From NCBI GenBank assembly GCA_010093995.1, contig ML992506.1:1037196-1101195 (forward strand): 64,000 nucleotides of DNA, written 5' to 3'. Below are positions 5,114 through 64,000 of the stretch, one piece after another (within the stretch, counting starts at the first letter, position 1; each line of letters opens with the position of its first letter). Under the pieces are notes generated by a model, which saw only the letters and a program-made list of their open reading frames with translations, was not told where the DNA came from and did no database searches. A program made the position numbers and the translations under genes. This DNA is from Elsinoe ampelina. Its lineage: Eukaryota.

Positions 5114-7177
5114 ATGGGTAGGTGGTCTCTTCAGATGGCGGGTTTCATCTAACGGTAGACAGCTCTCGCACTTGCGAATGTTACGACTTCACTAGCATCT
5201 ACATTGACCACTTCGTCCGTGTCCTCGCCCGCTCCAACATATTTCACTGGGACTTTCAACTACCAGTGCTTCATTCGAGTGAATCCGGCGTTGGCTACAT
5301 GGGTACTTAATCCCAACTTTCCTCCTATTGGGACGACATATCTCTACGTTGCGCCAAATGCAACCACCACATCGACCTCGGTCAAGTGCGAGCCTTCAGT
5401 TCTCGAGGAGCAAAAGTCGGCCGGCGCGAGGCAGCTTGGAGGATGGTTCGGGGCCAGGCTTGACGAAAAGTGCAACCTCATTGCGGACTACTACAACGCA
5501 CCAGGAGGAGCGAGAATCAATGGCACCACGACAACGTCGGCGACATGGCCGGGTCCCAAGACCGTCTTGAACATGGGTGCAGACTTCCTTGGAAACGACT
5601 TCATCAGCGGGACTCTGTCCACCTTCAGCTCTTCCATGCCATTTGTATTCTACACTGATCCTTACACCATCACGTCCTACCTGGAACCTCGAGCAGCCGC
5701 GAATGGCTCTCGGACTCTAGACTGGTGGACATACACTCTCATGCCAGATATGAGCAAGTACCTTCCGGACTTCCCACAGCTGAAATCGTGTACGAGATAT
5801 TTATGGCAGACATCGCCCAACACCTTGACCTACGCCAACTTCTTGACCTCTACTGTGACTCTGCCTGGCAGCCCGGCGCAAGTGACGGTAGACCGACCTC
5901 CTCCGACCCAAGCTCCAGCGCCTCAAATGCCACCTCCCACGCCGACACCAACTCCTGCTCCTGTACCTGCGCCTGCACCAGCTTCTCAACAGCCTACTCC
6001 CAGCAACAGCAATCCGCCTGCCCAGAACGACCCAGCACCAGGCAGTGGAAGCGGAAGTGGAAGCGGTCAATCGGCCCCCAGCAACAACAACCCCTCCTCG
6101 GCCCCACCAAGCGGCAACTCCAACCAGCAACCCCCTCCCAGCAGCGGCAACACTCAATCTCCACCCAGCAATTCAAACTCCAATCCCGACTCCCCACCAG
6201 CCATGATCCCCGCCCAGAACCCCTCCTCGAACAATCCAAACCCCCCCTCACAACCCAACCAACCATCAAACCAAGGCTCATCCTCAGGCTCATCCTCAGG
6301 CTCATCCTCAGGCTCATCCTCAGGCTCATCCTCAGGCTCATCCTCAGGCTCACCCTCCGGCTCCTCTCCCGGTCCCGGTTCCTCCTCCCCTCCCCCCTCT
6401 GGATCCTCCTCCCCCTCCGGATCCCAAACAATAACCTCCCTCCTCCTCCCCTCCTCCATCGTCGTCTCCCCCGGCGCAGCCCCCATCATCTTCTCCTCGA
6501 GCGCCTTCTCCCTCGACACCCAGGGCACACTGCACATCGCCGCCCTATCCACCCTCGCTCCGGGACAGGTGGCGCCGGCGGGGAGCACGCCTGTGTCCGT
6601 CCCCGGGGGAGGTGGTCAGTCGGGAGAGGAACAGGGGCAAGGACAGTCGGGAGAGGGGCAGAGGGTAGTGATTGTCGATGAGAGCAGGGCGAGTGCGGTC
6701 CCGGTGTCGGTGGTGGAGAGGTTGGGGAGTGTAGAGGTCGGAGGGGTGGATGTGCCGGTTGAGGTGAAGGAGGAGGTCGTGTCTGGGTCTGGGTCTGGTG
6801 GTGCTTCTTCGGGGGTGGGGACGGGTGGTAGTACAAGTGGAGGAGGAGGAGCAGGAGCAGGGTCAGGGTCGGCTGGGCGGGGGAGTGGGAGTGCAAGCGG
6901 CGGGCAGGAGACGGCAGGACAAAGCGTGGGGAGTGTTGTGGGTGATATAGGGAAGTGGATCGCTTCTGGACTGGGAGCGGGGACGGCGTGGGATACTGCG
7001 GGAGGAGGGGACGGCGCGGGTACTTCGGGTGGTGTAGGTGGTGCCGGTAACGGCTCAGCTAGCAGTGGGAAGGGAAATAGCACTGTGGTGCCATTCACGG
7101 GGGCTGCGGCAAGTGGACATGGGGGCGGTGTGCTGTGGGGTGCACTGGTGGGGGTGGCGGTGGTGATGGTGATGTAG
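5114..7177 (+). CDS. Ser/Pro/Gly-rich putative cell-surface (GPI-like) protein, paralog A
   Basis: 657-aa ORF 5204-7177. Probable start ATG 5114 with a phase-1 intron 5118-5162. Cys-containing N-terminal domain, low-complexity linker, C-terminal PFTGAA followed by a hydrophobic tail. Start uncertain. Confidence 0.75.
6275..6352 (+). repeat. 12-bp coding tandem repeat (GGCTCATCCTCA)n encoding GSSS
   Basis: About 6 perfect units directly visible. Confidence 0.9.
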
Positions 7178-8117
7178 CGATGTAGTGATGTGGTAATGTC
7201 TAGTTGACTGTTCATGATACCCTCTTTCACGACTTCGTCCTCCCTCATCCCATCCTCTCTCTCTCACCGTTGTCCCCTCCCACCACAAACCCCACCATTC
7301 TCATCGCCCCCCTCCAGCCAAGCACATCTCTCCGAAGATCTCCCACGCCAACCCTCGGCTATCTCCTCGACAAGGATGTCACATCTTGGCAGCAGTAGTC
7401 CCCCCCTGCGACCCTTTGTTCCAGGCGGGGACTGCACACGCGAAGAGCATGCAGGGGGGGTGTGATTGATCACGTTTGGCATCCCACTCCATGCCACGTG
7501 TGTCACTGGGACTATCGAATTCTTATCATCCTGGGGACAGCATCAATGCCTGTATCACGGGGACGTGTCCCTTCTCAAGGAGCATGGGACGCAGATTCAC
7601 AGCACAAGCAGAACATGGGTGTTAATGCTGTTCACATTCCCTCTTTCTCTCTCGTCTTCTACGTCCAAACAAGTTCGCTAATATAGACAATCCACTTTCT
7701 TCTCTTCTTCCCGTCGTCGTTCAAGCAAATCGCTCCCAGAAATGATGACTCCTTGTCTCGTGAATATACACGCGACGTACATGCTATCGTGACACCTGAT
7801 CCCGCCGCCGCCCTTGACCGTGACGCCTTGAAAATGGATGATGATGGGTAATGATGCGCTCGTGTAGGCTCGTAGAATAAATTGATCTTAAAATAGCAAA
7901 AAAAAAGAGGACCATCGATATGATGGTAAGAAGTGATTGGTGAACAGCGAGAGTATGATTCGAAAGTGCTGTCGATGCGATGGGGGGCACGACTGGGACG
8001 TGCCGTTGTAGCTGTGAGCCGTGTTGCGGATAGAGTAGGGTTGGTGATTAGGCAGAATAGAGTTGAGTTGATGCAGTCATGAACGAACGACCAGCCCTAA
8101 CACTGAGGGTGATGGAG

Positions 8118-9557
8118 TTACCGGCTCGTGTCTCGCTTGTTGCTTTGATCGCCTTCTGTCCTGAGTCGAGCCCATTCGGCGTCTGCACGTTGCTCGGCCG
8201 CCTTGATGGCATTTGGATCTGGATTGGTTGCGCCGGGAAGCATTCGAGCAATATCGCGCGCCAGGCTCTCGATGATGAATTGTCGGAACTCTTTATCCTC
8301 GCGCATGTCTTCGCCTTCCAATCGGAACTTCTCCTTCTTCTCCATGTTACGGCGGCGAAGGGCGCGAATTTCGTCCATGATGTGTAGCAAGACTGCTTCG
8401 GGGGCTTTATCGCGTGGCATTGCCTGATTGGCAGGATTCCGGACGTAGCGTCGTGTGACGTCCATAGCACCGTCTCGGGAAAAGGCGATGCAGTAAGCCA
8501 GCTTTCGCTTCCAGCCCTGGGTGTAGAGCAATGGCTTGTCCCATGCCTCTTCGCAAACATCGACGTGCACCCATCGTTGTCGATGAACGCTGTAGACTTC
8601 TGTCCAGACGTGATCTTCTGAATTCCAGATCCATCGTACTCGACAACCCATTGCTCTACACAACATGGTGAAGCAGTTTGCCCATTCTCCCACTCGTCCT
8701 CGTCGCGTCTGGAGCAGGACGAACGCATCATTGTACCGTGGGAATCGCTCAAAAGCCTTGCAAGACTCATACGAGCATTGGTACAGCTCGACTCGTGTTG
8801 CGCCTCGCGCTTGCTCCTCGTCGATTGGTGCGACCAAACCCATGGCAATGGTGGGGGAATTGCAGTGTGCGCATTTGGGGTTGTTGACCCACTTGAAGAA
8901 GTCTTTCCGGAACCATTTCATCAATGCGATCACGCAGCAGTCCTGGTATCCCCATGCAGGCTTGACGTTGGGTCCGAGTGAGGCAGCCTCTGCAGCAAAG
9001 AGATCTGCTTGTTCTTGCGCCTCCTCGTATATCCGTTGCACAGGGACGACTGAGAGTGCTTCGTCCAACAAGCCAGGGTTCTCCCATCGACAAGGTGTTT
9101 GTGACAGGGAGTGTAGCATTGTTCTGAATTTAAGCGACTTGCGATCGGTGGGCGGGGTAGGGATCAGCGGGATGTTTTTGAGGGATGAATAAGATGGTGG
9201 AGGAGGCGGCGGCGGCAGTAATGATTGCGGTTGAGGTTGTAAGTATGGTTGCTGTGGAGGGTATGTCGATGATTGTCCTGGTACTGGTCGTCGGGCAGGA
9301 GGTGGCGGTGGATACCGGGGGTCAAAGTGTCGCGGGGGTGGGACTGGTGATGATGTTTGGCTTCGTTGACCAGATAATTGATTGACGGCGGGCGATTGTG
9401 CTCGACTCGAAGGTCTGTGTTGAAGCGCATTCATCCGTCTCGTGCTCAGGACTCGTCTGAATTGCGAAGTCATATCCGTAGCCCATGACTCTGGTAGTTG
9501 GTTTTGTTGCGACTGTTGCCCAGGGCGTGACTGGCCCGGTCGCCTTCGATCCGCCAT
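8118..9557 (-). CDS. PNG1: Peptide:N-glycanase orthologue (transglutaminase-like), catalytic Cys replaced by Val
   Basis: WFRKDFFKWVNNPKCAHC, RFPRYN, TRRGRVGEWANCF, DHVWTEVYS, HVDVCE and GWKRKLAYCIAFS are PNGase core motifs. Confidence 0.92.
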   Translation of the reverse strand: MADRRRPGQSRPGQQSQQNQLPESWATDMTSQFRRVLSTRRMNALQHRPSSRAQSPAVNQLSGQRSQTSSPVPPPRHFDPRYPPPPPARRPVPGQSSTYPPQQPYLQPQPQSLLPPPPPPPSYSSLKNIPLIPTPPTDRKSLKFRTMLHSLSQTPCRWENPGLLDEALSVVPVQRIYEEAQEQADLFAAEAASLGPNVKPAWGYQDCCVIALMKWFRKDFFKWVNNPKCAHCNSPTIAMGLVAPIDEEQARGATRVELYQCSYESCKAFERFPRYNDAFVLLQTRRGRVGEWANCFTMLCRAMGCRVRWIWNSEDHVWTEVYSVHRQRWVHVDVCEEAWDKPLLYTQGWKRKLAYCIAFSRDGAMDVTRRYVRNPANQAMPRDKAPEAVLLHIMDEIRALRRRNMEKKEKFRLEGEDMREDKEFRQFIIESLARDIARMLPGATNPDPNAIKAAEQRADAEWARLRTEGDQSNKRDTSR

Positions 9558-11317: not shown

Positions 11318-14300
11318 TCAGGTGTCGAACCTCCATACATCCCAGCCCACACCGCATATCATCGTCACTGTCTCGTGACCTTCTCTCCAGACATCGATGC
11401 ATGCCACGTCCGCAACAGGGGTGTACCGGTCCTCCAATCGCTTGACCTCGACTCCTTCGACTTCTGTCTGGCTGACGTCCACTGAGACCTCCCAAAGCTT
11501 GATTCGTTGATCCAGGCCAGCAGTGACGACCCGGATCTTGCCCACATCCTCACTCGCGGAGATGACTTCCAGTGCCGTCAGCGCCGCCGCATGCGCTCTT
11601 GGTATCGTGAGTGTCGATGTTGAAGATCCACCGTCTTTCAGAAGACTGATGCTGAAAGCATTGTCGTCGCCTCCAGTAAAGAGCAGATAAGTTCCATGCG
11701 TCCAAGGTAAGAGAGCCGCAGCATGTACTGCACTCTGATGAGTCTTGAACCTCTCCGTCCACCCTATCGTGCTAACACTCCCCTGCACCTCCTTGTCGCT
11801 TACCCCCAGTTGAAACAGTGCAGCATGGCCATCAGTAGCCGTCGTAAGAAACCCTCCCGACCTCCCCGGCACTTGAATAACATTCGTCAAGCAGCAAGTC
11901 AAATAGCTCCCCTCCCACGCCCTCTCCCATCTCCCCTCTCCGCCGACAGACTCATACCAATAAACCCCAACACTCGAATCAGACCTCACCATCGCAACCC
12001 TCAACCTACATCCGCCCTCGTCCGCCCTATCCACGCCCTCGACATCTCCCTCCCCTCCTCCCTCCTCTCCACACCCTTGAGAAGAAAAAGTCCCCACATC
12101 AACCCCCAACACCCTCAAATCCCCCTCCTCACTCACGAACGGACACACACTCGCACACACCACCCCGACCTCCCCCATCTCCTTGGGCAAGACCCTCACC
12201 CGCCACACGAACACCTCTTCCCGTCCCCCAGCACTAACCAGGTACCGCCCATCAGCGGACCACTTGAGATCCTGCACACCGGTGTTGTGCTTCCTCAGCG
12301 TCCGTAGGCATCTCATTTCCCGGCCGGATGGACCTGCTCGGGATGCGCCAGGCGAGAAGACGGAGAGCTTAATGTCCGTGTCTTCTGCGCCTGTGGCGAT
12401 GAGTCTGCCGATGCGAGGTAGGGGAGGGGAGGAAGCGACGGCGCGGATCTCGCGGCCGTGGGAGCCGGGGTGGATGCGCAGGGCGGTGGGGGAGGGGATG
12501 GATTGGAGGAGGGTGCGGGAGGCCGAGGTCCATGCTAGGATGCCGCTGGTGGTGTCTTGGTTTTGGGTGGGTTGTTGGGTGGTGGTGGGGGAGGGGTCAG
12601 AGGGAGCAGGGAGGAAGGCCCAGGATCGATTGGAGCCGCCGCAGGGAATGCTGGTGGTGGATGGAGAGGAGGGGGGGAGGAGGTGGAAGGATTTGCGGTG
12701 GAAGCCGGCTAGGGTGGACTCGGAATTGGGACAGGAGATGAGGAGAGCGGCTTCGGTGAGGGGAGTCGCGAGGTGGTGCAGGGTCGTCAGGGTGTGGGAG
12801 GAGGGTTCGAGGAGGTGGATGCTGGTGGAGCCGGAGCGGGATGCGAGGGTGAGATAGATACCTGATGAAAGCGGCGTAGGTAGGATGTCAGTGATTGCGT
12901 CCTCGTGGAGTAGTTGAAGGAGAAGAGGAAACGGAGTGCTGGAGGTTGCGTGATCGGTGGCGAGCGTCGTTCTGTAGAGGGCCAGATTGCCGCTGCGGAA
13001 TCCGACTGCGAGTATCATTGCCCCGTCTCCGTTCCTTGAAATGACATTGAAAGAAGAGACATGTTCGTTCTCTGGTAGGTTCAACGCTGAATGTGCGGTC
13101 TTCATCGGAGTCGTGGAGACAATCTGCACCACTTCCGCAGCCTTGTCGCCGAGTCTAGTGAGCAAGCAGATTGCTGATCCTGTGCTATCACTTGAGGGTG
13201 GGGTGCTTCTGGCAAGGACTCCAGCAGCTTTCCGCTTGCCATCTAGAACTTTAAGAAGCCCGGAATCATGAGTATAGTAGAAGAGCGATCCCGACTTGCC
13301 GGCTAAGAAAGCAGCAGACAATAAAGGTACACTCGCCATCATGGAGAAGCCAGTAAGATCAGGCTCCCGACAGATCTGCCGCCGCACCAGGGCTCTGCTA
13401 TCAACGGATTCTGCCATGTGAATTACCGATGGCAATTTGATGGTCCATATCGTACCAGAGTTCAATGCCATTAGCATCTCGCCTGAGTTCAAGAAGCTGT
13501 AGCTTCTGATATTGTCCTTTTTGGAGCAATCTTCTTTTGATACACTGAGCTTCGACTGGACGGCAAGTCCATCTCTGCTTGCAATTGCGGCATCGTGAAG
13601 AACGATGGACCCATCTCCACCACCAGTTGCCACCAAGTCTGGTCCTTCAGCGTTGGAGAAAATAGCATGCGACCATATGTGCTTCCCCGAATGACGTTCC
13701 TGCTGTCCTATGTTCTCGAGCTCGCCATGCCAGACACCTGTTGCTTCCTTGCTCAGGTTCACGAGGGTCCAAAACTGACAAGTGGCGTCTTCTCCAAAAG
13801 TGACTAGGTTGTGACCAGTGTGTTCGGATGATAGGAACTGCACGCCCCATATTCTCGACAGATGGCCCATGGCATGGGCAACTAATCCGTCTGACGTACC
13901 TGGTTCGTCGGCTGACAAATTCAAGAAGCCGGTATTGCTCTCCACTGCGGAAGCTTGACCTTGTGTCGAAGTCTGATTTTTATGGCCGTCAAGCTCACTG
14001 ACATCCCAGATCCGAACGGTACGATCATCGCTGCAGCTAGCCAGCAATCTTAAGGGGCTTCCTGTGTCGGACAGCACAGCGCCCTCACTGAAGCTCAGAC
14101 CGAATGGCGAGCCTTCATGCCCACTGAAGATTTTGTGAACTTGGATTGTGGTCCCAGATGCATTTAGATCGCCTGTCCAGACGACGACCTGCCCAAAGAT
14201 TGTGCCTGCCGCTAGAAGTACACGATCGTCCGACTCCCAACATACCTTTGCGCAATACAGCATACTGTTAGAACGGGATGTCACGCTCTCAATCCTATCG

Positions 14301-14771: not shown

Positions 14772-15880
14772 TGACGGTGAAATGAGATGGCAGATGAAAT
14801 TTCCACGATCGATTTTGACAACGTCCAAGCTTGGCACAACGACATGTTTCGCCTTGTCGTAGTCACCTTTCACTCCTACAACAACACTACAAATCTTCTG
14901 AATTGCCCAACGGATAGCTTCCAGAGCCGCTGAAGCGCTGTGAACCATGAAGACGGCGCAAAACAACGAACCATGACATCAAGCATGCACCAGGGCGGCG
15001 TCTTGCGGAAGGTGATAGCACAACGCCTTAACGATGACTGTTCCTGCCAGGACGATTTGGAACTACAGCCGCTGCTAATTCAGGGTAGTTCTAACGTTTT
15101 GGGAGTCGAGGCACATCCAATCCAATGCGAGGTTTCCGTGCACCATATGACAAGACTCGAAGTGATGCATCACACGTCCAGGCTTTCAAGGAAGGATCTC
15201 AGCCTCCACGACATCCCCAAACTTCATTAACAAGACAAGAAGTGCCTGCACCACACGATGTTCTCAACCAACCAACAAAGAACCCTTATAACACACCTCA
15301 TCTCCCCAAACCCCCACACAATGACATCGCAGATCCAACACCCACTCGCACATGACCCCACGCAACGGCCAACGACCGTGGTGCCGTTGATGTAAATGGA
15401 GAGATCTAAACAGTCCACCGACTATCCAACGTCGGGAGCACAAGCTGACTTCCGGAAGCGTCAAACTGCCAGCGGTTGGGGCTTTCTGAGTCAACGTAAT
15501 GTACAGTGACGGTAGATCGTACTGGTGCTTTGCTGGCCAGTCGAAACCTACACAAGTTCGTCCGCGTTGGTTGCACGTTTGACCCCACCGCCACCACGAC
15601 AGGGGTGACTTGGGTCCCCACAAGCCAAGAGAAGCAGGTAAAGGTAGGTTCGCACCGGCTGTGACCGTGAGCTGCTTGATCACCTGATCTGTGGGGGACG
15701 TGAATGTTGACCTCGCGGGGTGTCGAGCATCTGCATGTGAGACTGGTATGTATCAAAGCTCGAGGTTTCTTTTTTACCGGCCAAGCGGTGTGTGCATATC
15801 TACGTGAAAGAGTATTTACATGGAAGAGAAAGCCAGACCCACAGGGCCAGAGCGCTTCAGATCTCGTCTCGCGGGACCGC

Positions 15881-17163
15881 TTACAAGCACTGAGAGTACC
15901 AGTCGTTGATGTACTTGCAGGTAAAGGGGGACCTGCAAGTAGTGGCACCAGTCCAGCCATTGCCGCCGCACTGACCATACTGGGCCGCACCGCCGGAGGA
16001 AGAAGCGGATGTTGTAGCCGGGGGAGCAGCGGTGGTGGTCGCCGGGCGAGTGGTGGTGGCTGGAGGAGCAGTGGTGGCGGGACGAGTAGTGGTCGCGCCA
16101 CCGCCCGAAGAGGAGCCGAGAGCGCTGATGATGGCGTTGTAGGCGGCCTTGGGCTGGAAGGAAGCGTCGAAGAGGAGAGGGTTGCTGCTTGCGCGCCATG
16201 AGTCGGGGTCGCGGACGCCCCAGCTGGTGATGCCCTCGCAGTTGGACTGAGCGAGGCAGGCATTGACGACGTTGAGGTAGTCGGCGGAGGCAGCGTTGAC
16301 GATGTCCAGCTCGGTGACGGCGCAATACTTGGCGGCACCGCAGAGGGCGGCGAGGGCGCCGGCCTGGGTGGTGGAACCTGGAAATTGGGTGCCAGCCTGG
16401 AGATGGCATTGGGACCCGACACCGTCGATGGGGATGCCGGCGGCGATCCACTTCTTCACGTAGGTGACGAAGCCTTGGGTCTTGGCGTAGGAGGCGCTGT
16501 CGAGGTTGTAGTCGTTGATGTAGAGGATGGCGTTGGGGTCGGCCTTGCGCGCGGTCTCGAAGGCAATGCGGAAGTAGTCCTCACCAAGGACTTGGAGCCA
16601 GTGGCTGTTTCGGAGAGTGCCGTCCTCATTGAAGGCCTCGTTGACGACGTCCTGAGGAGTGGTCAGATGTCTTCAGGTTTGTGTCAGTGGTGACTTACCC
16701 AAGCGTGGATCTTGCCCTTGTAGCGACCCATGAGAGTGTTGATATGGTTAGTAAGGACACTGGTCAAGGTGGTCTTGTCAGTGATGGCGGTGACCCATGA
16801 TGGCAGCTGTGAGTGCCAGACCAAAGTGTGCCCACGGATGAGGAAATTGTTGGTAGTGGCGAAGTTGACAAGATAGTCAGAGCCCTGGAAGTTGAAGGTA
16901 CCACGCGATGGTTCGGTGGCATCCCACTTCATGGAGTTCTCAGGGGTGACCTGACCGAAGACAGACTTGGTGAGGGCGTTGCCTTGAGCATTTCCGAGAG
17001 TGCCAGAGTCGGCAGCGGTACCCCAGTAGGTCTTGCCCTTTGCCTTGAAGGCAGCGTTGATGCTAGCGACGGTCTGACGCTCTTGCAGGCGCGCGTCTGG
17101 GACGGCGGCAGCAGAGGCCAAGCTGATCAGCGAGACGGCGGCAACAGATTGTGTGAAGAGCAT
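15881..17163 (-). CDS. Secreted GH10 endo-1,4-beta-xylanase with C-terminal CBM1
   Basis: Signal peptide; [31 protein letters not shown] (formed across intron 16698-16652), TELDI; Thr/Pro linker; CBM1 [16 protein letters not shown]...WYSQCL. Confidence 0.96.
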
Positions 17164-25342: not shown

Positions 25343-25742
25343 ACAGACGACCTCCATTCATGGATCGATTGGCAGAATTTGCAGTCCGCACTACCACAAA
25401 CCATTTTATTCTCGAGCCACCGGTGCATGGGTAGTCCCTCGGTAGACACCTCTCATCGCCGGACCTGGGCGACGTATATTGCGTCCACACTACGCGAAAC
25501 GCCACGGAACCCGCCACCCGACGGTCTGGGTCCCCCCTGCACCAAGCACGAGCAAGCTCGGGCAAGCATAGTTAAGCTCGAGGATAGATTGGCACGGCGC
25601 AGGCTGGACGGGCACGAGATCTGCGTCTGCCTTGATTTTGGGGGTCTTGTGTCACGGAGACGAGGCTATTTGGGGGAGGCAAATAGAGTGCAAGCGAGGA
25701 GGGCGCCGGGCCCAGATGGGGAGGGTTGGCCAATGATACTGG

Positions 25743-27390
25743 ATGAGCATGAAGGGGGACTTGTTGTTGTTTGGGCAGGGGAGGGTTAAATATGACCTGG
25801 TGCCCGGGGGTGAGGGAGGGGGAAGAGTAGGACGGAAGAAAAGAAAGAAGAAGGTACTCGGTATTGTCATGGCGCTGGTATTGCTTGCTGTTGCTGGGTT
25901 TGCGGTCAAGGGGTGAGTGGTCTTTCTTGTCCTCGTGTACATTGAGAGATACAGGAGGTGTGGACATGTCTGAAGTGTTGGTGTTGACTTGATGCAGGTA
26001 TGCTGCCCCTGCCGCTGCCTCTTGCGACTCTGTCGACAAGGGCTACCAATGCTCGACCGACATCTCCCACAACTGGGGCCAGTACTCGCCTTGGTTCAGT
26101 GTCCCCTCGACCATCTCCACTGCCCTCCCTAGCGGCTGCGAATACCGCACCGTACAAGTCCTCTCCCGCCACGGTGCCCGCGACCCCACCGCCTCCAAGA
26201 CCAAGACCTACAACGCCACCATCACCAAACTCCAGGCCGCTGTCGACACCTTCACCGGCAAATACGCCTTCCTCAACGACTACGTCTACAACCTCGGCGC
26301 CGACCAACTCACGCTCTTCGGCGAGCAACAAATGATCAACTCCGGCATCCACTTCTACAACCGCTACGCCTCACTCGCCCGCAAAGACACCCCCTTCATC
26401 CGGGCCTCAGGCGAAGACCGCGTCGTCGAATCCGCTCTCAACTGGACCCAAGGCTTCCACACCGCCAAATCCAAAACCGAATCCGACAGCTCCTACCCCT
26501 ACCCGCTGCTCACCATCTCCGAAGCCCCCGGCCAAGCCAACCCCCTCAACCACGACCTCTGCACCGCCTTCGAATCCGGGCCCTACAGCACCATCGCCTC
26601 CGACGCGCAATCCAAATGGGCCTCCATCTTCGTGCCCCCCATCCAATCCCGCCTGAACTCCGACCTCGCCACCAACCTCACCACAACGGACATCATCACC
26701 CTCATGGACCTCTGCCCCTTCACCACCGTAGCCTCCCCGACCGGCGTCCCCTCCCCATTCTGCACCCTCTTCACCCCCTCCGAATTCGCCTCGTACGCCC
26801 ACTACGAGTCGCTGAACAAATACTACGGCTACGGCGCCGGCAACCCCCTGGGCCCCACCCAAGGCGTCGGCTTCGCCAACGAACTCATCGCGCGTCTGAC
26901 GGAAAGGCCGGTGCAGGACGACACGAGCACCAACAAGACGCTCGACGCGGACGGGAGGACGTTCCCGTTGGGCAGGAAGGTTTATGCGGATTTTAGCCAT
27001 GATAACGATATGACGGCTGTCATGTTTGCGTTGGGGTTGTTTGAGGGGTTGGCGCCGCTGGCTACGTCGGGGGTTGATACGCTGGGGGAGGGGGCGAGGT
27101 ATAGCGCTGCGAACACGGTGCCGTTTGGGGCGAGGGTTTATGTGGAGTTGATGAGGTGTAAGGAGGAGAAGACGCGGAGGGAGGCCGGGGGGGAAGGGGC
27201 GAAGGGGTTGTGGAAGAGGAAGGACGCGGAGTTGGTGAGGGTTTTGGTGAATGATAGGGTGATGCCGTTGCAGAACTGTGGGGCGGATAAGTTGGGACGG
27301 TGTGAGTTGGGGAAGTGGGTGGAGAGTTTGAAGTTTGCGAGGACCGGGGGGAGGTGGGGGGAGTGTGGGATTAATGGGACGGCGGTGTGA
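25743..27390 (+). CDS. Histidine acid phosphatase / 3-phytase with N-terminal signal-anchor
   Basis: WGQYSPWF, catalytic RHGARDP and YADFSHDN motifs; intron ~25913-25998; exon 1 encodes a basic cluster followed by a hydrophobic helix. Confidence 0.92.
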
Positions 27391-27543
27391 GATTGGATGG
27401 GGAGGGAGGACTAGTCGAGGGGAAGGAAAAGGAAAAGTGGGACAGGCATGGTGGAGCGGTATAGCAAGTCGATATTGATATCATGATTCATGATTTCGTC
27501 AAATGTACAGATGTGTGACTCTCGATATGGTGCTTGAACGTCC

Positions 27544-39152: not shown

Positions 39153-40434
39153 TTGGTCTTCTTTGCCGCTACTGCATTTGCCGGTGTGCGGCTTGCAATG
39201 TCAGAGACTATCACTCCCAAGATCCAGCAGTTTACTGCGAAGAAGGAGATGGTCGAGTGCCATAGCTGGATGAAAGTGGAGTTGCCCAGAAACTCGAGCT
39301 GATAGCCTTGTTGCAGCCATATTGCTTGACCAACGGCCCAAGCTGCCAGAGCTGAGATGCCCAGGGTACGATTGCGCATGAAGACCGAGTCGGGTAAGTA
39401 GAAGGGCAGGAAGACCATGTACCACAGGAAGTACTGACTGGTACAGACTTTGTTGAATGTGACAAATGCAAAAGTTTGAGCAAGCATGGTGCCAGCGAGG
39501 TCCTTTCTGCTCAACGCCAATGGGATGGTGACCACAGCGAGGAACAGCTGAGGGACAAACGCCAGAGCTTCCACTTTGAGACCCGATCCAGAGCCGACGG
39601 CGGAGCGTAGATGAAGTAGCGTGCTATAGACGGAAAAGTTGTGGCGATGGTCAATCCGTGTCAGGTGATATGCATAGCTATGCTCAACGAACGGCCATCC
39701 GTACCTGCAACATATCAGTGCTTCGCCCTGAACCCAGACATTGAGACCTACGTCGAGTACATCACCACATTCAATCCCATGAAAGTCACACCTGCCGCGA
39801 TTCCCAACATCACCACCTCCCGCCTCATCACCCTCTCCCACACCCCACCCTCTCTCCTCCCTGCAACCCACCACACCAAACTCGCCGCATAAACAAACGG
39901 ATAAATCTTGAAATGGACCGCCAACCCCAGCACCGCCCCTCCCACTAGCCACTGCCCTCTCAACACCGCCCACAACACCGCAACCACAAACACCGCCAAC
40001 AACCCCTCACTGCTCCCCCTAGTACTAATATTCGCCACCATCGGATTCAACACCCAAACAGCAGCATACCTACACGCCCTCTCGCTCCCAAGCCCATATC
40101 CACCCTTCCCCTTCTCCCTGCGCAACACATCATAGATCAACCACCCAGCCACTAAATCCCCCAGCGCGAACAACACCTTGCCAAAATCAAACGAGCCCGG
40201 CCACACAGTTGGGTACAGCAACCACGCCAACAGCGGGGTATACCGGTACGTATCCCGCTGGTAGGGCGACTGCCCGCGCGAGATATACCGCGACGCGTCA
40301 GTGAAGACGAGGTAGTCGATGTCGGTGTACTTGAGGGGGGAGTGGGTGTCTTGGTAGCGGCCCCATGTCAGGAGGAGGAGGCGGAGGAGGAAGGAGAGGA
40401 GGAAGAGGGTGGGGGAGTTCCAGAGGCGGGACAT
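39149..40434 (-). CDS. GPI14: GPI mannosyltransferase I (PIG-M)
   Basis: KYTDIDYLVF, YRYTPLL, ISTRGSSE, HFKIYP, DHRHNFS, FNKVCTSQYF; one intron. Confidence 0.95.
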
Positions 40435-40703
40435 CCTGGAATTTCGAAGTTTGGATTGCAAAGGCTTTATCGAGACATTTTCGGCGCGATTGGATTGCGA
40501 TTGGGGAGATGGGGTGGGAATTGATGGAGAAGAAGATGGAGAAGGTGGACAGGTGTGCATGGGCCACTTGGCTGGAAAGCTTCATTTATGGGCACTCGAG
40601 TCAGGATGGGACACGTTTTGAATGTATTGGGGTGGTTTCAATTACTGTCAATTGCATTGCTCCCTCACATGCTTGAAATGTTGTACGTCCGATCATCTCG
40701 TAT

Positions 40704-43121: not shown

Positions 43122-43911
43122 GGCAGCATTTCTTCGAGCACGTTCTTGGGCTCCATACCAGCATCAAAAGATGTTTGTTATATGTCAAGGCGGTGTTCCA
43201 GCCACGCTCTCCGCTGACGTTGCCGCGATGGAATCACTTGGTGGTTATGAGCCCGGCGCGTGGTCCTACCAAGGCGTACATTGTCCTCACCTCATGGAAG
43301 CGGGCTTGGCACACCGTTTTTGGAACGACCTATCGACCTGTTCACCACTGGACGTTGCCTAGTACGGTCACAACCAAGGGAAGTTGCACTGCTAATGTAG
43401 TCAACACTACAGGGACTCTGTTGCATCGAGGGACAGTCGGAACATGACCTCTGTCGAGATTGATCTTGATATAGTACAAACCTATGGTCTCTAACTGATT
43501 ATGAGTCAAAGAAATCTTCACGGCTTCTGGTAATGCAAATAATCGGTCGTGGGTTCAGGCTTGTACTCGAGCAAAGCAAATTCCAACTATGCTGTGTCAT
43601 GATATACTTCGCACCACATGCAGACGCATCATGAGTGCACGATACGAAAGCACGGGATTATGTAATGCGTCATCTTTGTGTTGCCAAAGTACATGTCTTC
43701 TTGCCAGCACCGGTCCATTGACCATTGCCGCCGGACCCACGTGATCTCGGCAAGACTTGCCCATCTCCGTCCAAGCACTTGACATCACCACGACCTCTCA
43801 CAATTCCCACAACGACTGCCTACCTCCAACCATTCTCCCCCATGCCTTGTCCTTCATGACAACCCAATCAATCCCCCACAACCACCACCCACCCTTCCAC
43901 ACCCTCCGACA

Positions 43912-44688
43912 ATGGCTCCCACCCGCCGCTACCTCCGCCTCACCCGCTACTCCGTCCTCGAAACCCGCATCTACCTCGAACAACCCTCCCTAGGCCCCAC
44001 GTGGCTCCTCTCCGCGCGCTCCCCCGCGCTCCCCCGCATAATAGCCGCCATCCGGCCCCTGATCCTCCCCAAACTGCGGGAAGAAAACGAAAACGCAAAG
44101 AAGAAGGGGGCCAAGAAGCGGAAAGCGACCAAGGACACGGTCACGGGGGAGGATTTCGAGGTGGCGCTGTTTTTGACCGAGGGGGGCAGTAGGCATGCGA
44201 TTTTGAGGAAGGAGAAGAGTTTTGCGCCGGGGGGGAAGGGGAGGTTGGGGGGTGGGAGGAGGATGGGGGTTGGGAATGCGGGGGGTGAGGGAGGGGAGGC
44301 GGTGGTGGTGAGGGAGGAGAGTGATGGGGAGGATGGGCTCGGGAGGAGGTTGGAGGATATTCCGCTCAGGGGTCAGGAGGGCGAGGGGGATGGGGGGGTG
44401 GTGGAGGTGAGTTCGGATGAGGAGGGGGTAGGGATTGGGAGAGGGAGGAAGAGGAAGAGAGGGGTGGTGCAAGAGGAGGATGGTGAGGGCGAAGAGGATA
44501 AGAAGAAGTTGGGGCTGAAGACGCAGTATGAGGGTTTCAGTATCTACGGGAGGATATTGTGTTTGATTGTGAAGCGGAAGGGGGTCAAGGCGAGGGCAGA
44601 AGCGCCGGCAAACAGCAGTCAGATGTTGGAGAATTGGGTCAGTACGCAGATGGAGCAGGATGGGGTAGGGTTGGATGATGAAGGATGA
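43912..44688 (+). CDS. Conserved fungal hypothetical protein
   Basis: 258-aa ORF with ordered ends (RYLRLTRYSVLETRIYL; YEGFSIYGRILCLIV) and a charged, NLS-like middle. Confidence 0.75.
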   Translation: MAPTRRYLRLTRYSVLETRIYLEQPSLGPTWLLSARSPALPRIIAAIRPLILPKLREENENAKKKGAKKRKATKDTVTGEDFEVALFLTEGGSRHAILRKEKSFAPGGKGRLGGGRRMGVGNAGGEGGEAVVVREESDGEDGLGRRLEDIPLRGQEGEGDGGVVEVSSDEEGVGIGRGRKRKRGVVQEEDGEGEEDKKKLGLKTQYEGFSIYGRILCLIVKRKGVKARAEAPANSSQMLENWVSTQMEQDGVGLDDEG

Positions 44689-45139
44689 GGAGGCAAAGAT
44701 CTGAGTTGTCTCATATGACGACCGCTCAAGGATAACAGATACAAGGGCTCCTTGGCTGAAGAAGATCTGACGGATTGGTCGACAGACACGTCACTTCGAA
44801 GCAGCGAGCTGATCTGGCACCCACCAACACCGCACAGCTGCGAAGACGCAGAGGGCGAAGGAGACAATCGCACGACAGAAGCTGCACCCCTTGGCCATGG
44901 ACGGAGTCGAGACACATTGGTCAGAAAGCGGACGAGAATACAGTGAAGATCAACCTCAAGGGCAGAATGTGTGACCAGCGTGTGCTTGTCCGCTCGAGAG
45001 CAGGCGAGGATCTAGTGAGAAGACTAGCGAGCACGTAGAATGCGGAGCTGTCGAAAGCTCGACGCACAAGATAGACATCGAAGACGCTGTCATCGCAGTA
45101 TACCTTCCACTTCTGCCACACTTCCTCTCGCTGATTTCC

Positions 45140-46689
45140 TCACAACCACGTCCCCAAATTCACATGCACCGCCTTCTTATTCGTATAAGCATCCAACCCA
45201 GCCTCTCCCAGCTCCCTCCCAATCCCACTCTGCTTGACACCCCCGAACGGAATCCTGAAATCCGAATCGTTACTGCTGTTAATCCACACCATACCCGCCT
45301 CTATCCTTCTCGCAATCTTATGCGCCCTGACCATGTCCCTCGTGAACACGGCACTGCCCAGCCCATACATGGTGTCATTTGCCTTGGCCAATGCTTCCTC
45401 CTCAGTCTTGAAGCTAGCGATCACGACAAAGGGGCCGAAGACTTCTTCCTTGAAGATGCGCATGTTGTCTTTCACGTCTGTGAAGATGGTGGGAGAGATG
45501 AAGTAGCCCTTTCCTGCGGCGTCTTTGAAGGGTTCTCCGCCTGCGACGAGAGTGGCGCCGTCTTCTTTGCCGAATTCGACGTATTTGAGCACTCGCTCGT
45601 ATTGTGTCTTGGTGACTTGTGGGCCTTGGAAGGTGGTCTCCTCGAACGGGTCGCCGACGACGCTGGTGGTTTTGACGTGTTCTTTGAATTGCTTGATGAA
45701 TTCGTCGTAGACGCCTTCTTGGACGAGGATTCGAGAGGTGGCCGTGCATATTTGTCCCATGTTACTCATGATGCCGATGTGCGCCCATTTGACTGCTTGA
45801 TCGAGGTCGGCGTCGTCGAAGACGAGGAGAGGAGATTTGCCGCCGGTCTCGAGGGTGATGTTCTTCATAGTCCCAGCGGCTTGCTTCATAATCTCTCGAC
45901 CTGTGATGGTGGATCCGGTGAAGGCAATCTTGTCGACGTTTGGATGCTGGACGAGAGCTGCGCCTGCTACACGACCCAGACCATTGATGATATTCACCAC
46001 GCCTGGTGGAAAGCCAGCTTCCTTGATAAGATTGGCAAAGTAGAGGATGGAAAGTGGTGTCTGTTCAGCTGCTTTGAGGACGACGGTATTTCCTGCTGCA
46101 AGAGCTGGACCAAGCTTCCATGCTGCCATTGCGAGTGGGTAGTTCCAAGGGATGATCTGACCGCATACTCCTACAGGTTCGCGAATGGTGTAGGCAAGTT
46201 TCGCTGGGCCAGTGTCGATGACTTGACCGTGGAGTTTGTCCGCATAGCCAGCATAGTATTTGAGGGTGCCAGCGACCTCGGCGAGATCTTCGTTCAGGGC
46301 TACAGAGTATGGTTTGCCATTGTCCCAGGTTTCGATCGTTGCGAGAGTCGGAGCATGCTCGGAGACAAGTTGTGAAAGCTTGTACATAAGGTCACCACGT
46401 TCCGCAGGTGTTATGTCGCGCCATTCGCCGTTGAAGGCATCTCGTGCAGCCTTGACAGCTTGATCGATGTCTTCGGCAGATGCTCCAGTGACTTCGCAGA
46501 TCGTCGACTCGTCCCTGTGTGATGTAAGTCCATTGATAGGGAGAGTGTGAGAATGGAATCTTACGATGGGTTTATGCTTGTGATTTTCTCCCCAGAACCC
46601 TTGACCCATTCATTGTTGATGAACAGACCTGTAGGCTGAGCATACTCGACTCCGTTCGGCGCCTTTAGTTTCACTGATAGGTCCGACAT
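45140..46689 (-). CDS. Aldehyde dehydrogenase
   Basis: [46 protein letters not shown]; one intron at ~46564-46516. Confidence 0.95.
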
Positions 46690-52760: not shown

Positions 52761-54156
52761 CGCACGGGACGGCAGGGCCGCCAAGGTCGGGCACTCACTC
52801 GGCCTTGGCCCGCTTTGATCTGCGCGAGGGTGGAGTGCTGGGGCTGAGCTACCTTTTACCCACTCGTGGATGCAGAGGAGAAAGGGACATAGGAAAGGAA
52901 CAAAGTACATATTTTCAAAAGTTCGGATCAGGATCCACTGCACTTGAAGAAGCGAGATTGAAGGCCAGCAGAAGAGGAGGGGGCGGTAATTCCATATGTT
53001 CGTAGTCGTAGTCTCGACCTCCTTGCCAGAAGGATATCAAGAGGTGGCGAGGCTAGAGACATCTGTACTCTTAATCATCTGCAGAGGCATTCCTTGGGTA
53101 GCGGGCGTCCTAATCTATCGAGTCAGAATACCATTACATTCCATTGAGGTCCTCCCATGACCATACGACCACATCGTGAGAGATGCTTGCTGCATACTCG
53201 GCACATGGAGCAATGCGGTGCTCGGGCTGACCCACACTATACCCAATCAGTCAAACATCCCTGCTTCCAAGGCTTCTCTTACATCCAGAGCAAGCCGAAC
53301 AAGCCCTGCGCTATACGCGCTCTCCTCGCCACCAAGCTATGGAGTAAGTAGTCCGCTACGAAGTCGTTCATGCGGGATTACAGTAGCTGCACAGACTCGT
53401 CCATGAAATATACACCCCGCGGAACCCGGACGATGCCGGTCCGCTATTCTTGCCTCTCATCGTTACATGCTCCCCTGCTTTTGGCGTGCGATCTGCCATG
53501 TCCAGTGCGGTAAGTACGTCTCTTGGTGAGCCTGGGAGGGGTGAGGGGGATTTTAATGAGATTTGGACGGGGAGGAGAGTTGGGGGATCATCGAGGCCGG
53601 GGCTGGGGAGGCGCAGAGGTGGGGCCCAGCTGTGAGCGGAGGTAGTAGAGAGGGCTAAATGCTGAAGGCAGAGGGTCGGGGAGAGGGGGCGAAGGAGAGG
53701 TGAGAGGCAAAGGGGGAAAACGAGACGAGGTGGCTGGCGAGATGAGCAAACAGTGATGTGAGGAGGGAATGGTCTTTTGCCGATATGTTGCTGAGCTGGG
53801 TCCTTTCAAAGCAGACTGTACCTAGCATTGGAGAGGTGTGTGGATTGGACGGTCATTTTCAACGACTATCTGCCGCTGTCCTGATGCTGTGATATCAAAT
53901 ACTCTCGGCCCTGCTTTGGGGCTATGCTACTGAGCAAACCCATGCTTCCTGCTTCAAACGCCAATGCTTTCAATTTTCCCATGCATAATACAGACAGTTC
54001 ACCACCGTTGCTTTCCCTTGCGATTTATCACATCAAAGACACCCGCAAGAACGTCCGGGCTAAGATGCCTCACCACCCCCTCTGCATCTCCAACATCTCC
54101 TGCTTCTGCCTCTCCTCCAACGACGACCGCTTCCGTCTCTCCGCGTGGTCAAACTT

Positions 54157-60333: not shown

Positions 60334-61218
60334 CTTGGTCGTTAAGTAGCCAAAGAATATCGAAGGTTTGCTGTGCGCCTCTTCCTCAAATGAGGCTGTC
60401 GCAGCGTGGAGGTGGTAGAGAAGAACAGAAACAAACCTGTACGACACCTTCAGACTCACCTGCCCTCGTCCTTTTAAACAAACACCATGATGGACATGAA
60501 TGGACAAAACTTGCGCATGGCGGCTGCTGGACGATAGAAATGTGCTCAACCGTAATGAACGCCGAGCCAGGCCTTTGAGCAAGTTTCACCACAAAGCTCC
60601 GGATGAGGTAGTTTTTTGTTTCTGAGCACTCGTGGGAGGACACGTCAGGGCTGACCGGAGCCATGAAACATGCGCTGAACGATGAAAGGGAGGAGACGTT
60701 CTTGACAGTGGGTGCGTCTGGGTGTATTCGATGTCGCATGTTTGCCCCTCATGGGCTGTCGAGGTCATGCGACTGACTGCAGCCATCTCTCGATTCTCGC
60801 CATCGCCATTTGGACCAATGTCGCAGCTCTATTGACGAATCCTGGAGCTGACAATGAATCCGAAGAATCAGGTTAGGTCAATCTAGGGCGACTCGTGTAT
60901 TTTGAGCAAGGACAAAGGATAGAGAAGAATGCAAACATCTAGGAAGGATTTGCGACGTGATGTACTGTTGCCGTTTAACCAAAGCTATTTGCACCGTTTG
61001 CATTGATCAGGCCGCGGAGCTCTTGAGCAAGCAAGCAAACAACTCAATCACAACGCTTCAGCCCAAGGCCACGGACACTACATGCACTGTATTGTTATGG
61101 ATTAAGGCGTTGTCGCGCCGTGTTATAGGATACAACTGGACCAAGCGTAACACCTGTTGACGACACTCTCGACTCCTATGTGCATGACCTCCAATCACAT
61201 GCCCCATCCACCCTCACA

Positions 61219-62666
61219 ATGGACAAGCAAGTCCACCCCTGCGCTTCTACAATCTCATCTATCTAATGCTCCATAGCTCCTGGATCCCGTCCAAACTACG
61301 CTCCTCGCTCCCCAAAATGCCGCTCGCTCCGATCCCACCACCAATAACAGCAAGCATCTTCCTCCCTACTCGACCACCTCCCTCTCCTCTCCCACAGAAG
61401 CCATGGTACCACCGCAAAGCTGCTTCCCTCGAGTCCGACCTCCAACTTCTCCTCGATGCCCAAGCCGCTTCCCTCTCGAATCCCCTCTCTCCTCCTTCAC
61501 CCTCACCGGCCCCGTCCTCAGCAAGCAGCACCGCCTCCTACCATCCAAGTCGCACCAAAAAGATCCCTCTTCGCCAAGCGCGTGCTGGTCTATACACGAC
61601 CATGCGCCGGCTCGCCGCTCTCAAAGATGAAGAAGTCTCCGCTCTTGTGGCAACAGTGGACTCAGTCGCAGGGTCGCATGAACAGCTGCTTGCGTGGACC
61701 GAGCAACGCACGAAGCTTCGCGAGCGCACAGAGCAAATCGCTTCAAGTGAGGACGTGGACAGGGCGAAAGAGCTGAGGGAGCAAGCGGAGGGACTGCAAC
61801 CTGAGATACGCGAATTGGAGGACCGACTATCGGAGCTGCGCAACGAGCAGAGACGGTTGATGAGGGAGGCAGATGAGGTTGCGAATAGGGTAGAGGGCAA
61901 GGTTGCAGGGTATACGAGACGGCTTGAGGGAGTGGAAAGAGAAGTTAGGAGTTTCCTTGAAGGACTAGGGCGAGAGGGCGATGTGGTGTTTGACCAGCAC
62001 GGTGACGGGGAGGATGAGGAAGGCTTTTGGGCGGCGCCTAAGAGGAGGACTTTGGAGATGGCTGTTGACGTGGTGGGAAAAGAGCGAGAACGTGCAGAGG
62101 GACGGCTCGATGTGGTTGAGACGGAGAAAGAGGCATTGCTAGAAGGAGCTATGGTATGGAAGGACGTGATACGGCTGGTAGAAGGATTTGAGAAGGACCT
62201 TCGAGAAGACATGCAGAACTCGAGAAACAATCCGGGCTCTAGCGAGCAGCTGAAAGACACACTGAGCCGGATGGACGAGGTCGTCGAACAGCTCGAAAGC
62301 CAAATGGCCCTTTCCGAGACCAAAGGGTGGAAACTCCTCATAGCAGCCATCGGGGCCGAGCTCGACGCCTTCCTCAAGGGCAAAGATGTCCTCCAACAAG
62401 CCCTCGACGCAATCGAAAGGCCCCATGACCGCCCATTATTCGACGATACAAACGACGACGAGGAAGAGCAAGGCGTCAACTCCGTAATCCGCTCACCTCC
62501 AGCAACACGAAAAGACGACCAAGAATCCCACGACGGCAAAATCGAAGCGCTCGACCACGCCTTCAACCGCAGACCAACAACCAACGGCTCCCACGACACT
62601 GACGAAGACGACGACGGCCCAGACCCAGAACTAATGATCTCCCATCACGACACAGACACAGACTAG
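61219..62666 (+). CDS. Coiled-coil protein, Atg28-like
   Basis: 466-aa ORF; LQLLLDAQ, ARAGLYTTMRRLAALK and GWKLLIAAIGAEL resemble fungal Atg28 family sequences (from memory). Probable 8-nt first exon followed by a GC-AG intron. Confidence 0.65.
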
Positions 62667-62716
62667 ACTCTTTTCCCATGACAGCCTTGATACCCATTCC
62701 AAACCCCTTCCCCCCT

Positions 62717-64000
62717 CTACTTCTCAATATAGTAAGCCAAATCGCCCCCCTCCGTCTCCAACCTCGTCATCCCATTCCCCATAAACCTATACCTATTCCT
62801 CCCCCTGTAGACAATCTCAAAATCCTCCGGCCGCAACGCCCCAATCATCTGGTGATACCCGATCGCCGTCCCCGCCCACACGGCCGTCACCCTACCGTCG
62901 ACCCGGTGGTTCTTGTACCACGACCGACACCCGCCCGACCAGACCAGTGTCTGCATAATCTCGTCGGCGTAGGCGTTGAATTCTTCGACGCAGGCCTGTT
63001 TGGGGGAGACGGAGGCGATGGATTCTTCGGCCATCTTGCGGGTCCAGAGGCAGATGTAGTTTGCCGTCCATTGGAGTTGGGCCATGAGGGAGCCGTGGCC
63101 TACGGGCTGCGAGGAGGAGTTAGTCGGTCACACGCTGATGGCGTCTCGAAGGAACACAGTGTGATGCTGGGAGGGGACTCACTGAGTTGGGTCCGCCGAA
63201 CATGAAGTAGTTCGGGAATCCGCCGGCCATGACGCTGAGGTAGCTGAGGGGTTCGTCGGCCCATTCTTCTGCGAGGGTGCGGCCGTGTTTGCCGATGAGA
63301 GGCCACGGGGGCCGGTGGCTGACGTCGAAGCCGGTGGCGCAGACGAGGACATCGAAGGGGTGGTGTTCGCCGTCGGCTGTCACTACGCCGTCGGAGGTGA
63401 TCTTCTCGATGCCGGATGTCACGAGGCGTACGTCGTCGCGTGTGAAGGCTTCGAGGTACCCTGGTCCAGGGGTTGCTCTTCTGCAGCCGACTTCCCAGTC
63501 GGGTGTGAGTTTGGCGGCGAGTTCTTCGTCTCCGCCGAGGCGTTCTTTCATGAGTTTGGCTGTGTTGGCTCGGGCTCGTTCTTGGGCTTTGCTGCCTTTG
63601 CGGAACATTTGGTAGTTGACGTTACTTTCGTGCTGGATCTTCTTCCGGTGTTGCTTGAGGGCTTCTGGGTCGTCTCGGAAGCGCTGCCTCTCTTCTTCGC
63701 TGTAGACGTATTGCACTTTGCCACCGATGATGCCGAACCCGAGGCCAGGGGTGATATACGTTGGATGCCGCACGAAGTTCGTAAGCGACTCGACCTTGCC
63801 TACTAGTTGAGGAATGATCTGGATAGCGCTACTGCCATTGCCGATTACGCCGACCCGCTTGCCGGAGAAGTCGAAGTCGTGATCCCAGTCCGCTGAGTGC
63901 AACAGCTTACCTTTAAACGACTCCAGACCAGGAATGGTTGGCCATCTCCAATGACTCAAGAAGCCAGTCGCGGAAACGAGGATATCAGCGGTGTCGGAAA
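62717..64000 (-). CDS. Baeyer-Villiger/flavin-containing monooxygenase (5' end outside the window)
   Basis: FKGKLLHSADW (BVMO fingerprint FxGxxxHxxxW), GNGSSA, GCRR, ATGFD, GCRSWY; intron at ~63180-63108. Confidence 0.92.

Follow-up and report, generated by a model that had tools for sequence, protein, structure and literature searches.

Gene-anchored domains of opposite GC skew in an extreme, mostly step-like form in Elsinoe ampelina DNA

Examination of a 64,000-nucleotide stretch of the genome of the fungus Elsinoe ampelina (assembly GCA_010093995.1, contig ML992506.1, positions 1,037,196 to 1,101,195 of the forward strand; hereafter the window) reveals recurring domains in which the + strand passes from strongly C-rich to strongly G-rich. 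The skew that constitutes these domains is anchored to genes, is strand-asymmetric and acts on all site classes. The domains match the gene-polar opposite GC skew of fungal genes described by McLean and Tirosh (2011; BMC Genomics 12:638, PMC3315797). The gene-polar skew of fungal genes is thus known, and what is new here is its extreme, mostly step-like form in E. ampelina DNA. Its source may lie in mutation or repair coupled to transcription, a reading that is weighed below against selection and several other alternatives.

A three-state hidden Markov model (HMM) of base composition on the + strand, used along with a 400-bp profile and 60-bp bins, recovered eight adjacent pairs of a C-rich arm followed by a G-rich arm, and the recurring domains reported in a preliminary description of the window are accordingly real. 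These eight clean pairs are named D1-D7 and D10. Switch positions were refined by least-squares change points, and step and ramp fits were compared for each domain. Genes were identified by Pfam matches on open reading frames (ORFs), which agree with the gene names given previously; several start codons and neighbouring genes are inferred from open frames. The pairs and the related ALDH region are as follows, with positions in the window and arms in the order of the + strand:
D1, 5893..7212, + strand: C arm 5893-6561, G arm 6562-7212, change point 6562; inside the ORF 5159-7177, the G arm ending 35 nt past the stop.
D2, 11750..12981, - strand: C-rich 11750-12253, G-rich 12393-12981, change point 12322; WDR6/Rtt10-like WD40 gene (ORF 11318-14728), coding-strand C arm 12981-12393 and G arm 12253-11750.
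D3, 26006..27459, + strand: C arm 26006-26860, G arm 27024-27459, change point 26949; phytase exon 2, the G arm ending 69 nt past the stop (27390).
D4, 29529..30498, + strand: C arm 29529-30098, G arm 30099-30498, change point 30099; MRPS8, likely ATG 29705, stop 30358.
D5, 37865..38885, + strand: C arm 37865-38349, G arm 38413-38885, change point 38352; CCC1/VIT1, likely ATG 38155, the G arm ending 267 nt before the stop (39152).
D6, 39760..40563, - strand: C-rich 39760-40206, G-rich 40301-40563, change point 40233; GPI14/PIG-M, likely ATG 40434, coding-strand C arm 40563-40301 and G arm 40206-39760.
D7, 43760..44693, + strand: C arm 43760-44074, G arm 44075-44693, change point 44078; gene without a Pfam match, ATG 43912, stop 44688.
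ALDH region, 45103..46400, - strand: stop 45140; weak C bias over codons ~80-400, strong coding-strand G arm 45409-45103.
D10, 61188..62196, + strand: C arm 61188-61575, G arm 61855-62196, change point 61626; gene without a Pfam match, ATG 61317 or 61266, stop 62666.

The arms are 263-855 bp long and are separated by 0-279 bp within a pair, so that a whole pair measures 0.8-1.45 kb. Their GC skew is -0.45 to -0.65 in the C arms and +0.50 to +0.68 in the G arms, and their GC content of 0.55-0.65 compares with the 0.51-0.55 of most long non-arm segments, the AT-rich start of the window being excluded. In 60-bp bins the domains are box-like with abrupt outer edges, and 15.7% of the window falls in arms according to the HMM. 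The T-A skew is negative in all eight C arms and mixed in the G arms. Hence, the earlier wording of a change from C/A to G/T is upheld for its C/G part, and its A/T part is weak overall, yet strong at 2-fold codon sites. Eight of the 11 switch points previously listed correspond to the clean pairs, with fitted points 1-114 nt from the listed values; of the remainder, the one at 45430 is present at synonymous sites of ALDH, and those at 53500 and 62970 are weak. Around 45430 the + strand shows a C block (45103-45368) and then a weak positive skew, with the flip being clear at ALDH 4-fold degenerate sites, and around 62970 a lone C block (62477-62945) is likewise followed by weak positive skew.

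All eight clean switches, and that of ALDH, lie inside a single gene, with a C-rich 5' part preceding a G-rich 3' part on the coding strand; this pattern is its own reverse complement, so that + strand and - strand genes display it alike. The C arm starts upstream of the likely ATG by 176 nt in MRPS8, 290 nt in CCC1, 129 nt in GPI14, 152 nt in the D7 gene and 78-129 nt in the D10 gene. At the other end, the G arm extends past the stop in D1 (+35 nt), phytase (+69), MRPS8 (+140), the D7 gene (+5) and ALDH (+37), and falls short of it in the WDR6-like gene, CCC1, GPI14 and the D10 gene. Coding bodies contain none of the three G-to-C junctions (7212/7213, 26005/26006 and 30498-30656), each of which lies between genes or at the 5' end of a gene. 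The preliminary description had envisaged a process centred on the switch points and had held that gene annotation does not explain the skew. Neither statement is supported, since the outer arm edges lie near gene ends and the C-to-G switches all fall within genes, where they follow the polarity of the coding strand. A fixed relation to transcript ends, which had been named as an observation that would speak against such a process, is largely what is seen, with the exceptions of the mid-gene D2 and of the G-rich 5' end of the phytase gene. In a window-wide comparison of 22 genes at all sites, 16 have a skew shifted further towards G in their final 80 codons than in the 160 before them (Wilcoxon p=0.007). 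PNG1, laccase, NPT1 and SPT5, which had been singled out as lacking the skew, are indeed without paired arms both in the HMM and at 4-fold sites. The orientation of the next gene also separates the affected genes from others: the nine genes that carry a strong coding-strand G arm all seem to have a convergent 3' neighbour (eight supported and one uncertain), and no such arm is present in any of the seven Pfam-supported genes with a tandem 3' neighbour.

Examination of individual site classes indicates that neither chance nor protein content accounts for the domains. At pooled 4-fold sites the C arms have 64% C and 9% G (n=925) and the G arms 64% G and 9% C (n=640; Fisher p=3e-157), with A and T changing from 15% and 12% in the C arms to 12% and 15% in the G arms; the corresponding composition of other coding sequence is 22% A, 34% C, 19% G and 25% T (n=3023). 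Codons ending in a pyrimidine (NNY) have C and T in numbers of 253 and 27 in C arms, 60 and 149 in G arms, and 881 and 481 in other coding sequence. The Gln, Lys and Glu codons, which end in a purine (NNR), have G and A in numbers of 36 and 88, 171 and 29, and 470 and 331, respectively. The order of preference is thus C > A >> T, G and then G > T >> A, C, which is not that of usual codon preference. Within single genes, 4-fold sites go from ~80-90% C to ~75-85% G in phytase, the WD40 gene, MRPS8, CCC1, GPI14, the D7 gene and ALDH, and are near-uniform in composition in the remainder of the WD40 gene, laccase, NPT1 and SPT5. When synonymous codons were permuted within each of nine genes for 2000 rounds, with the third-position skew difference as the statistic, the observed difference was reached in 0/2000 permutations in 9/9 genes (z 6.1-13.4). 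Non-coding parts of the arms are skewed too: five pieces upstream of a likely ATG range from -0.40 to -0.76, and four 3' flanks within arms from +0.53 to +0.75. The strand-asymmetric skew supposed in the preliminary description is therefore present at synonymous and non-coding sites, beyond codon-permuted controls and amino-acid content. Codon positions 1 and 2 flip together with position 3, so that amino-acid use shifts between the parts of a gene, and the effect on protein composition noted earlier is confirmed. Translational codon bias as a source does not fit the A-ending Gln, Lys and Glu codons in C arms, the T-ending NNY codons in G arms and the non-coding skew.

A comparison of switch positions between orthologues, proposed earlier as a check, was made for the phytase, whose translation in the window is 100% identical to an E. 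ampelina protein, 85% to that of E. fawcettii and ~75% to those of Sphaceloma murrayae and E. australis. Metagenome contigs scanned with a phytase alignment yielded 80 loci, of which 56 are non-redundant and 52 usable, and in these the 4-fold GC skew was compared between codons 40-300 (early) and 340-465 (late). The late skew is higher than the early one in 50 of the 52 loci, the sign flips in 34, and the difference is at least 0.6 in 16. The means over the 52 loci are -0.31 early and +0.17 late, and the window phytase is the most extreme of the compared loci (-0.79 and +0.88). Its flip lies at codons ~280-360, and the same codon region is used in fungi that are only 50-64% identical in protein, which fits a gene-anchored effect and not origins or fast-moving hotspots. 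The arm fraction is lower than the 15.7% of the window in 77 of the 80 other loci, being higher in L038, L021 and L053. Over the 817 kb of these 80 loci the HMM placed 13 C-to-G and nine G-to-C junctions, a count that includes redundant loci and does not separate genic from intergenic junctions. When phytase loci are grouped by Pfam-supported 3' neighbours, eight with a convergent neighbour have a mean late skew of +0.31 and four with a tandem neighbour a mean of -0.04, an apparent difference that goes in the same direction as in the window, among lineages that are not independent. A skew index computed at the protein level was uninformative for the phytase, as its C-terminal part is coded by G-rich codons in 15/15 species compared.

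Contigs of sequencing run X13, from a related species, align through the arms at ~90% identity, indicating that this species carries the same domains. Differences, taken as totals per piece, number 73 of 781 in the all-arm piece 43910-44690, and 120 of 1323, 137 of 1101 and 144 of 1054 in non-arm pieces; divergence is thus not raised in arms. In the WDR6-like protein encoded across D2, the protein-level index is -0.37 to -0.55 at amino acids 600-750, where C-coded residues prevail, and +0.35 to +0.83 at amino acids 800-950, where G-coded ones do. This footprint is common to the proteins of E. fawcettii, E. australis and S. murrayae and is absent from 13 proteins outside the Elsinoe/Sphaceloma clade (Myriangium and 12 other fungi), in which the index is about +0.1. 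These comparisons show that a gene-polar pressure has long been maintained at the same place. Over 36147-44974, coding stretches align with X13 at 86-91% identity, but in several intergenic stretches (37569-37659, 41794-42074 and 44690-44974, for example) X13 has unrelated sequence of about the same length.

The available text of McLean and Tirosh (PMC3315797) reports for most of 64 fungi that the coding strand favours C near the 5' end of genes and G near the 3' end, with the bias being visible at 4-fold sites, reaching promoters and 3' untranslated regions (UTRs) and changing amino-acid use. The window domains resemble this skew in several respects: 1) the 5' C bias extends upstream of the likely ATG and the 3' G bias passes the stop; 2) 4-fold sites are affected and amino-acid use is shifted, and needs of the protein or of translation do not explain the bias; 3) many genes are concerned, but not all. 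They differ from it in that single genes of the window plateau near -0.6 and +0.6 with sharp edges, as opposed to the species-wide averaged ramps with an intermediate middle in the available account, and in that their free sites are near saturation. Moreover, the A/T skew described there is uniform along genes, whereas the 2-fold sites of the window flip, with A preferred over G and then T over C, and the window has one mid-gene, clade-specific pair (D2) and one G-rich 5' end (phytase). Elsinoe is outside the species list in the available part of that paper, and our search for literature on skew in Elsinoe or Dothideomycetes returned nothing relevant other than McLean and Tirosh and papers citing it. 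Given that the published ramps are averages over genes, the difference in form may not bear on class membership. Outside fungi, human gene 5' ends carry a positive GC skew, unlike the negative 5' skew of the window. At the 3' ends of human genes the non-template strand has a positive GC skew, as in the window, and the title of Ginno et al. (2013; PMC3787257) links GC skew in human genes to R-loop formation and transcription termination; the window differs in that its G arm lies within coding sequence and its G runs are unclustered.

The source that we favour is a pressure of mutation or repair that is strand-asymmetric and tied to transcription by RNA polymerase II (Pol II), with a sign that would differ early and late in the transcription unit. 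The domains being read as the gene-polar skew, the coding strand of a unit is C-rich, with A preferred to G, from the 5' UTR onward, and then flips to G-rich, with T preferred to C, towards the stop codon and just past it. A C-to-G switch on the + strand would thereby mark the meeting of two regimes within one gene, and a G-to-C switch a gene border. Such a cause corresponds to the mutational hypothesis of McLean and Tirosh, and we would give it a probability of about 0.5; the available text of PMC3315797 leaves the choice between differing mutational regimes along Pol II transcription and an avoidance of C tied to the supply of cytidine triphosphate. As divergence is not raised in the arms, asymmetric repair appears more likely than local hypermutation. 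Two further candidates were set aside: repeat-induced point mutation (RIP), because RIP lowers GC whereas the arms are GC-rich, and an assembly artefact, because reading frames and Pfam domains are intact across the switches and a second species has the same arms.

Several observations weigh against a mutation or repair pressure of this kind. No dinucleotide signature of a mutational context was found in the arms (CpG odds ratio 0.99, GpC 1.02, with the neighbours of rare bases matching composition), and the unraised divergence, which speaks against hypermutation, is also what a fixation bias, that is selection, would give. Of the RNA-derived contigs for the window (unstranded, from runs X3 and X4, which are guessed to be RNA and have intron-like joints), one extends at least 618 nt beyond the stop of ALDH, while the G arms end near the stop codon, a poor fit to a mutational regime coupled to termination. 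The same difficulty is noted in the available text of PMC3315797, where the 3' skew peaks at the stop codon and not in the termination region. Furthermore, D2 is a mid-gene domain: one gene of 1146 aa contains it, with ~1750 nt of ORF before it and 430 nt between it and the stop. The 5' region of the phytase gene is G-rich on the coding strand (+0.55 and +0.45), contrary to the 5' C bias in the literature. Seven of eight domains are better fitted by a step than by a ramp, as against the averaged ramp of the published pattern. Strong arms are found in only ~9 of the 22 window genes, and at 4-fold sites alone the gene-end comparison is weak (14/22 genes, p=0.12); with the count at all sites, this may point to a tendency that is general but uneven, being strong in about nine genes.

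The same gene-polar pattern could instead be held by selection, with C-richness early and avoidance of C late in the gene tuning the flow of Pol II, as in the adaptive hypothesis of McLean and Tirosh. In another version, selection would act on how the gene is transcribed or on its transcript, for instance to keep R-loops or antisense read-through in check where genes are closely packed. We regard this as possible, though on the whole unlikely. In accord with selection, the free sites are near saturation without an excess of divergence (73/781 in X13 against 9.1-13.7% outside arms), G-arm edges follow the stop codon and not the end of the RNA-derived contig, the same gene positions are kept across distant fungi and within the clade, and every gene with a strong G arm seems to have a convergent 3' neighbour, no such arm being present in the genes with a tandem one. 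It is harder to reconcile with the skew of pieces upstream of the likely ATG and of 3' flanks, with the restriction to a subset of genes, and with the cost of rewriting the amino acids of folded proteins such as the WDR6-like one; a mid-gene G arm such as that of D2 would be harmful if it promoted termination. The G runs are also unclustered (GG odds ratio 0.92), so that seeding of G-quadruplexes or R-loops is not favoured, and these structures, which the preliminary description had entered among its candidates, lose ground. The limitation of strong G arms to convergent genes suggests yet another model, in which one rule would produce both arms: the first 0.3-0.9 kb behind a strong Pol II start would turn C/A-rich on the non-template strand, for example via repair favouring the template strand. 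Each G arm would accordingly belong to an antisense transcript that starts near the stop codon of a gene with a convergent neighbour, and would be the zone closest to that start; the C-to-G switch would be the meeting of sense and antisense units, and D2 would reflect clade-specific internal starts. If true, this would explain the step-like edges, the convergent restriction of strong G arms and the G-to-C switches at borders; it leaves the G-rich phytase 5' end unaccounted for unless an antisense start lies at the junction of intron 1 and exon 2, and we hold it to be doubtful.

The candidates that place the process at the switch itself fare less well. Intragenic meiotic double-strand break hotspots, at which repair synthesis or biased conversion would give opposite biases and raised GC, draw on the higher GC of most arms (0.55-0.65 against 0.51-0.55 in most long outside segments), on the fairly constant pair size of 0.8-1.45 kb and on the position of D2 away from a gene end. 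Resection and conversion tracts are moreover of the same order of length as the 263-855 bp arms, which counts in favour of hotspots. Intragenic hotspots are known in another Dothideomycete: in Zymoseptoria tritici, the available text of Stukenbrock and Dutheil (2018; PMC5844332) places 1435 of 2578 hotspots inferred from population data in exons, so that these hotspots are mostly exonic and intragenic position alone is no ground to dismiss the idea. The window domains share with them a kilobase scale and an exonic location in a Dothideomycete. They differ in being conserved and following gene polarity, while the title of PMC5844332 calls recombination landscapes dynamic, its available text finds GC-biased conversion very weak or absent, and the word skew has no occurrence in that text. 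In addition, the outer arm edges lie at gene ends in most domains, the phytase shift is at the same codons in 50/52 other loci, divergence is not raised in the arms, and the simplest damage model, deamination of 3' single-stranded tails, would predict the opposite polarity of G and then C. Conserved, gene-anchored and no more diverged than their surroundings, the domains make hotspots an improbable source. Selection for a fold-back of the C arm on the G arm, as cruciform DNA or a long RNA hairpin, might be read from the complementary composition of the arms and from the best local duplexes of 200-nt flanks (-41 to -81 kcal/mol). The real arms nonetheless pair no better than separately shuffled ones (z = +0.65, +2.15, -3.21, -0.81, -1.90, +1.39, -1.60 and -2.30 in the eight domains), inverted matches are low-complexity stretches of only 16-29 nt with 71-88% complementarity (the longest being 29 nt at 72%, with none in D6), and lone arms without a partner exist, all of which renders fold-back very improbable. 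Replication origins, suggested by analogy with skew jumps at origins, are hardly credible: the arms end abruptly after 263-855 bp without extending to a terminus, there are 8-9 switches in 58 kb, all intragenic and all following gene polarity, and the phytase flip is at one gene position across distant fungi. Recombination hotspots, fold-back and origins, all put forward in the preliminary description, are not supported.

In the window the gene-polar skew of fungi is very strong in amplitude and sharply bounded in individual genes, so that its edges lend themselves to direct comparison with mapped transcript starts and ends, antisense units, R-loops and mutation spectra. It alters the make-up of proteins in a clade-specific manner, as in the WDR6-like protein, and gives rise to spurious ORFs in each of the six frames of skewed stretches. 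It can also mislead analyses of codon usage, selection or phylogeny in which genes are taken to be uniform in composition along their length.

Beyond the clean pairs, the window contains the following skewed blocks:
7213..7368, + strand letters: lone C block flanked by the D1 gene and PNG1, which are convergent.
9094..9360, - strand: isolated block that is C-rich when read on the coding strand of PNG1, within the part encoding the Pro-rich N-terminus (codons ~66-155).
15198..16542, - strand: 3' region of a GH10 xylanase gene, with a coding-strand C block 16542-15995, a neutral part 15994-15378 (stop 15881) and a G block 15377-15198.
25640..26005, + strand: G-rich block over the phytase promoter, 5' UTR, exon 1 (25870-25914) and intron 1 (25915-25998).
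30656..30932, + strand letters: lone C block between MRPS8 (+) and a 580-aa ORF 31093-32835 (-), G-rich on the strand of the latter.
53525..53772, + strand letters: lone G block, listed previously as a weak switch at 53500.
62477..62945, + strand letters: lone C block that takes in the end of the D10 gene and the downstream side of BVMO, its convergent neighbour on the - strand; read on that strand, the block is G-rich.

The G-to-C switch that precedes the phytase C arm coincides with the junction of intron 1 and exon 2 (25998/25999), and exon 1, which encodes the signal peptide, uses codons ending in G or T. The phytase gene (+) is followed by a 433-aa ORF without a Pfam match (-) and by MRPS8 (+), together covering 25870-28845 and 29705-30358. 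This order is kept in loci L001 and L002, where - strand ORFs of 475 and 468 aa are followed by a Ribosomal_S8 ORF, and - strand ORFs of a similar kind come after the phytase in L004, L029 and L057. MRPS8 in L001 and L002 has no HMM arms.

The D1 protein is Ser/Thr/Pro-rich and then Gly-rich, with a hydrophobic C-terminal tail, and in view of this tail its product looks like a putative glycosylphosphatidylinositol (GPI)-anchored wall protein. At 6283-6354 the D1 frame contains six tandem copies of a 12-base unit coding for Gly-Ser-Ser-Ser. The CCC1 (+) and GPI14 (-) frames have stop codons that overlap at 39149-39152; the remainder of GPI14, down to 39149, is neutral in skew, as are the 874 bp between the G arms of the two genes. 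One RNA-derived contig (run X3, record 10) spans three genes here, over 36251-39392 and 39446-39701. Over 44522-46513, RNA-derived contigs (X3 record 15 and X4 record 21) join ALDH to the last 166-410 nt of the convergent D7 frame; the end of the X3 contig at 44522 adjoins adapter-like letters, and such a two-gene contig is no proof of a single transcript. Finally, positions 1-4400 of the window are AT-rich (GC 0.20-0.33) and include a 149-base run of N (1924-2072), beside gene-dense DNA with a GC content of ~0.53; this segment looks like an AT-rich isochore or a repeat remnant with an assembly gap.

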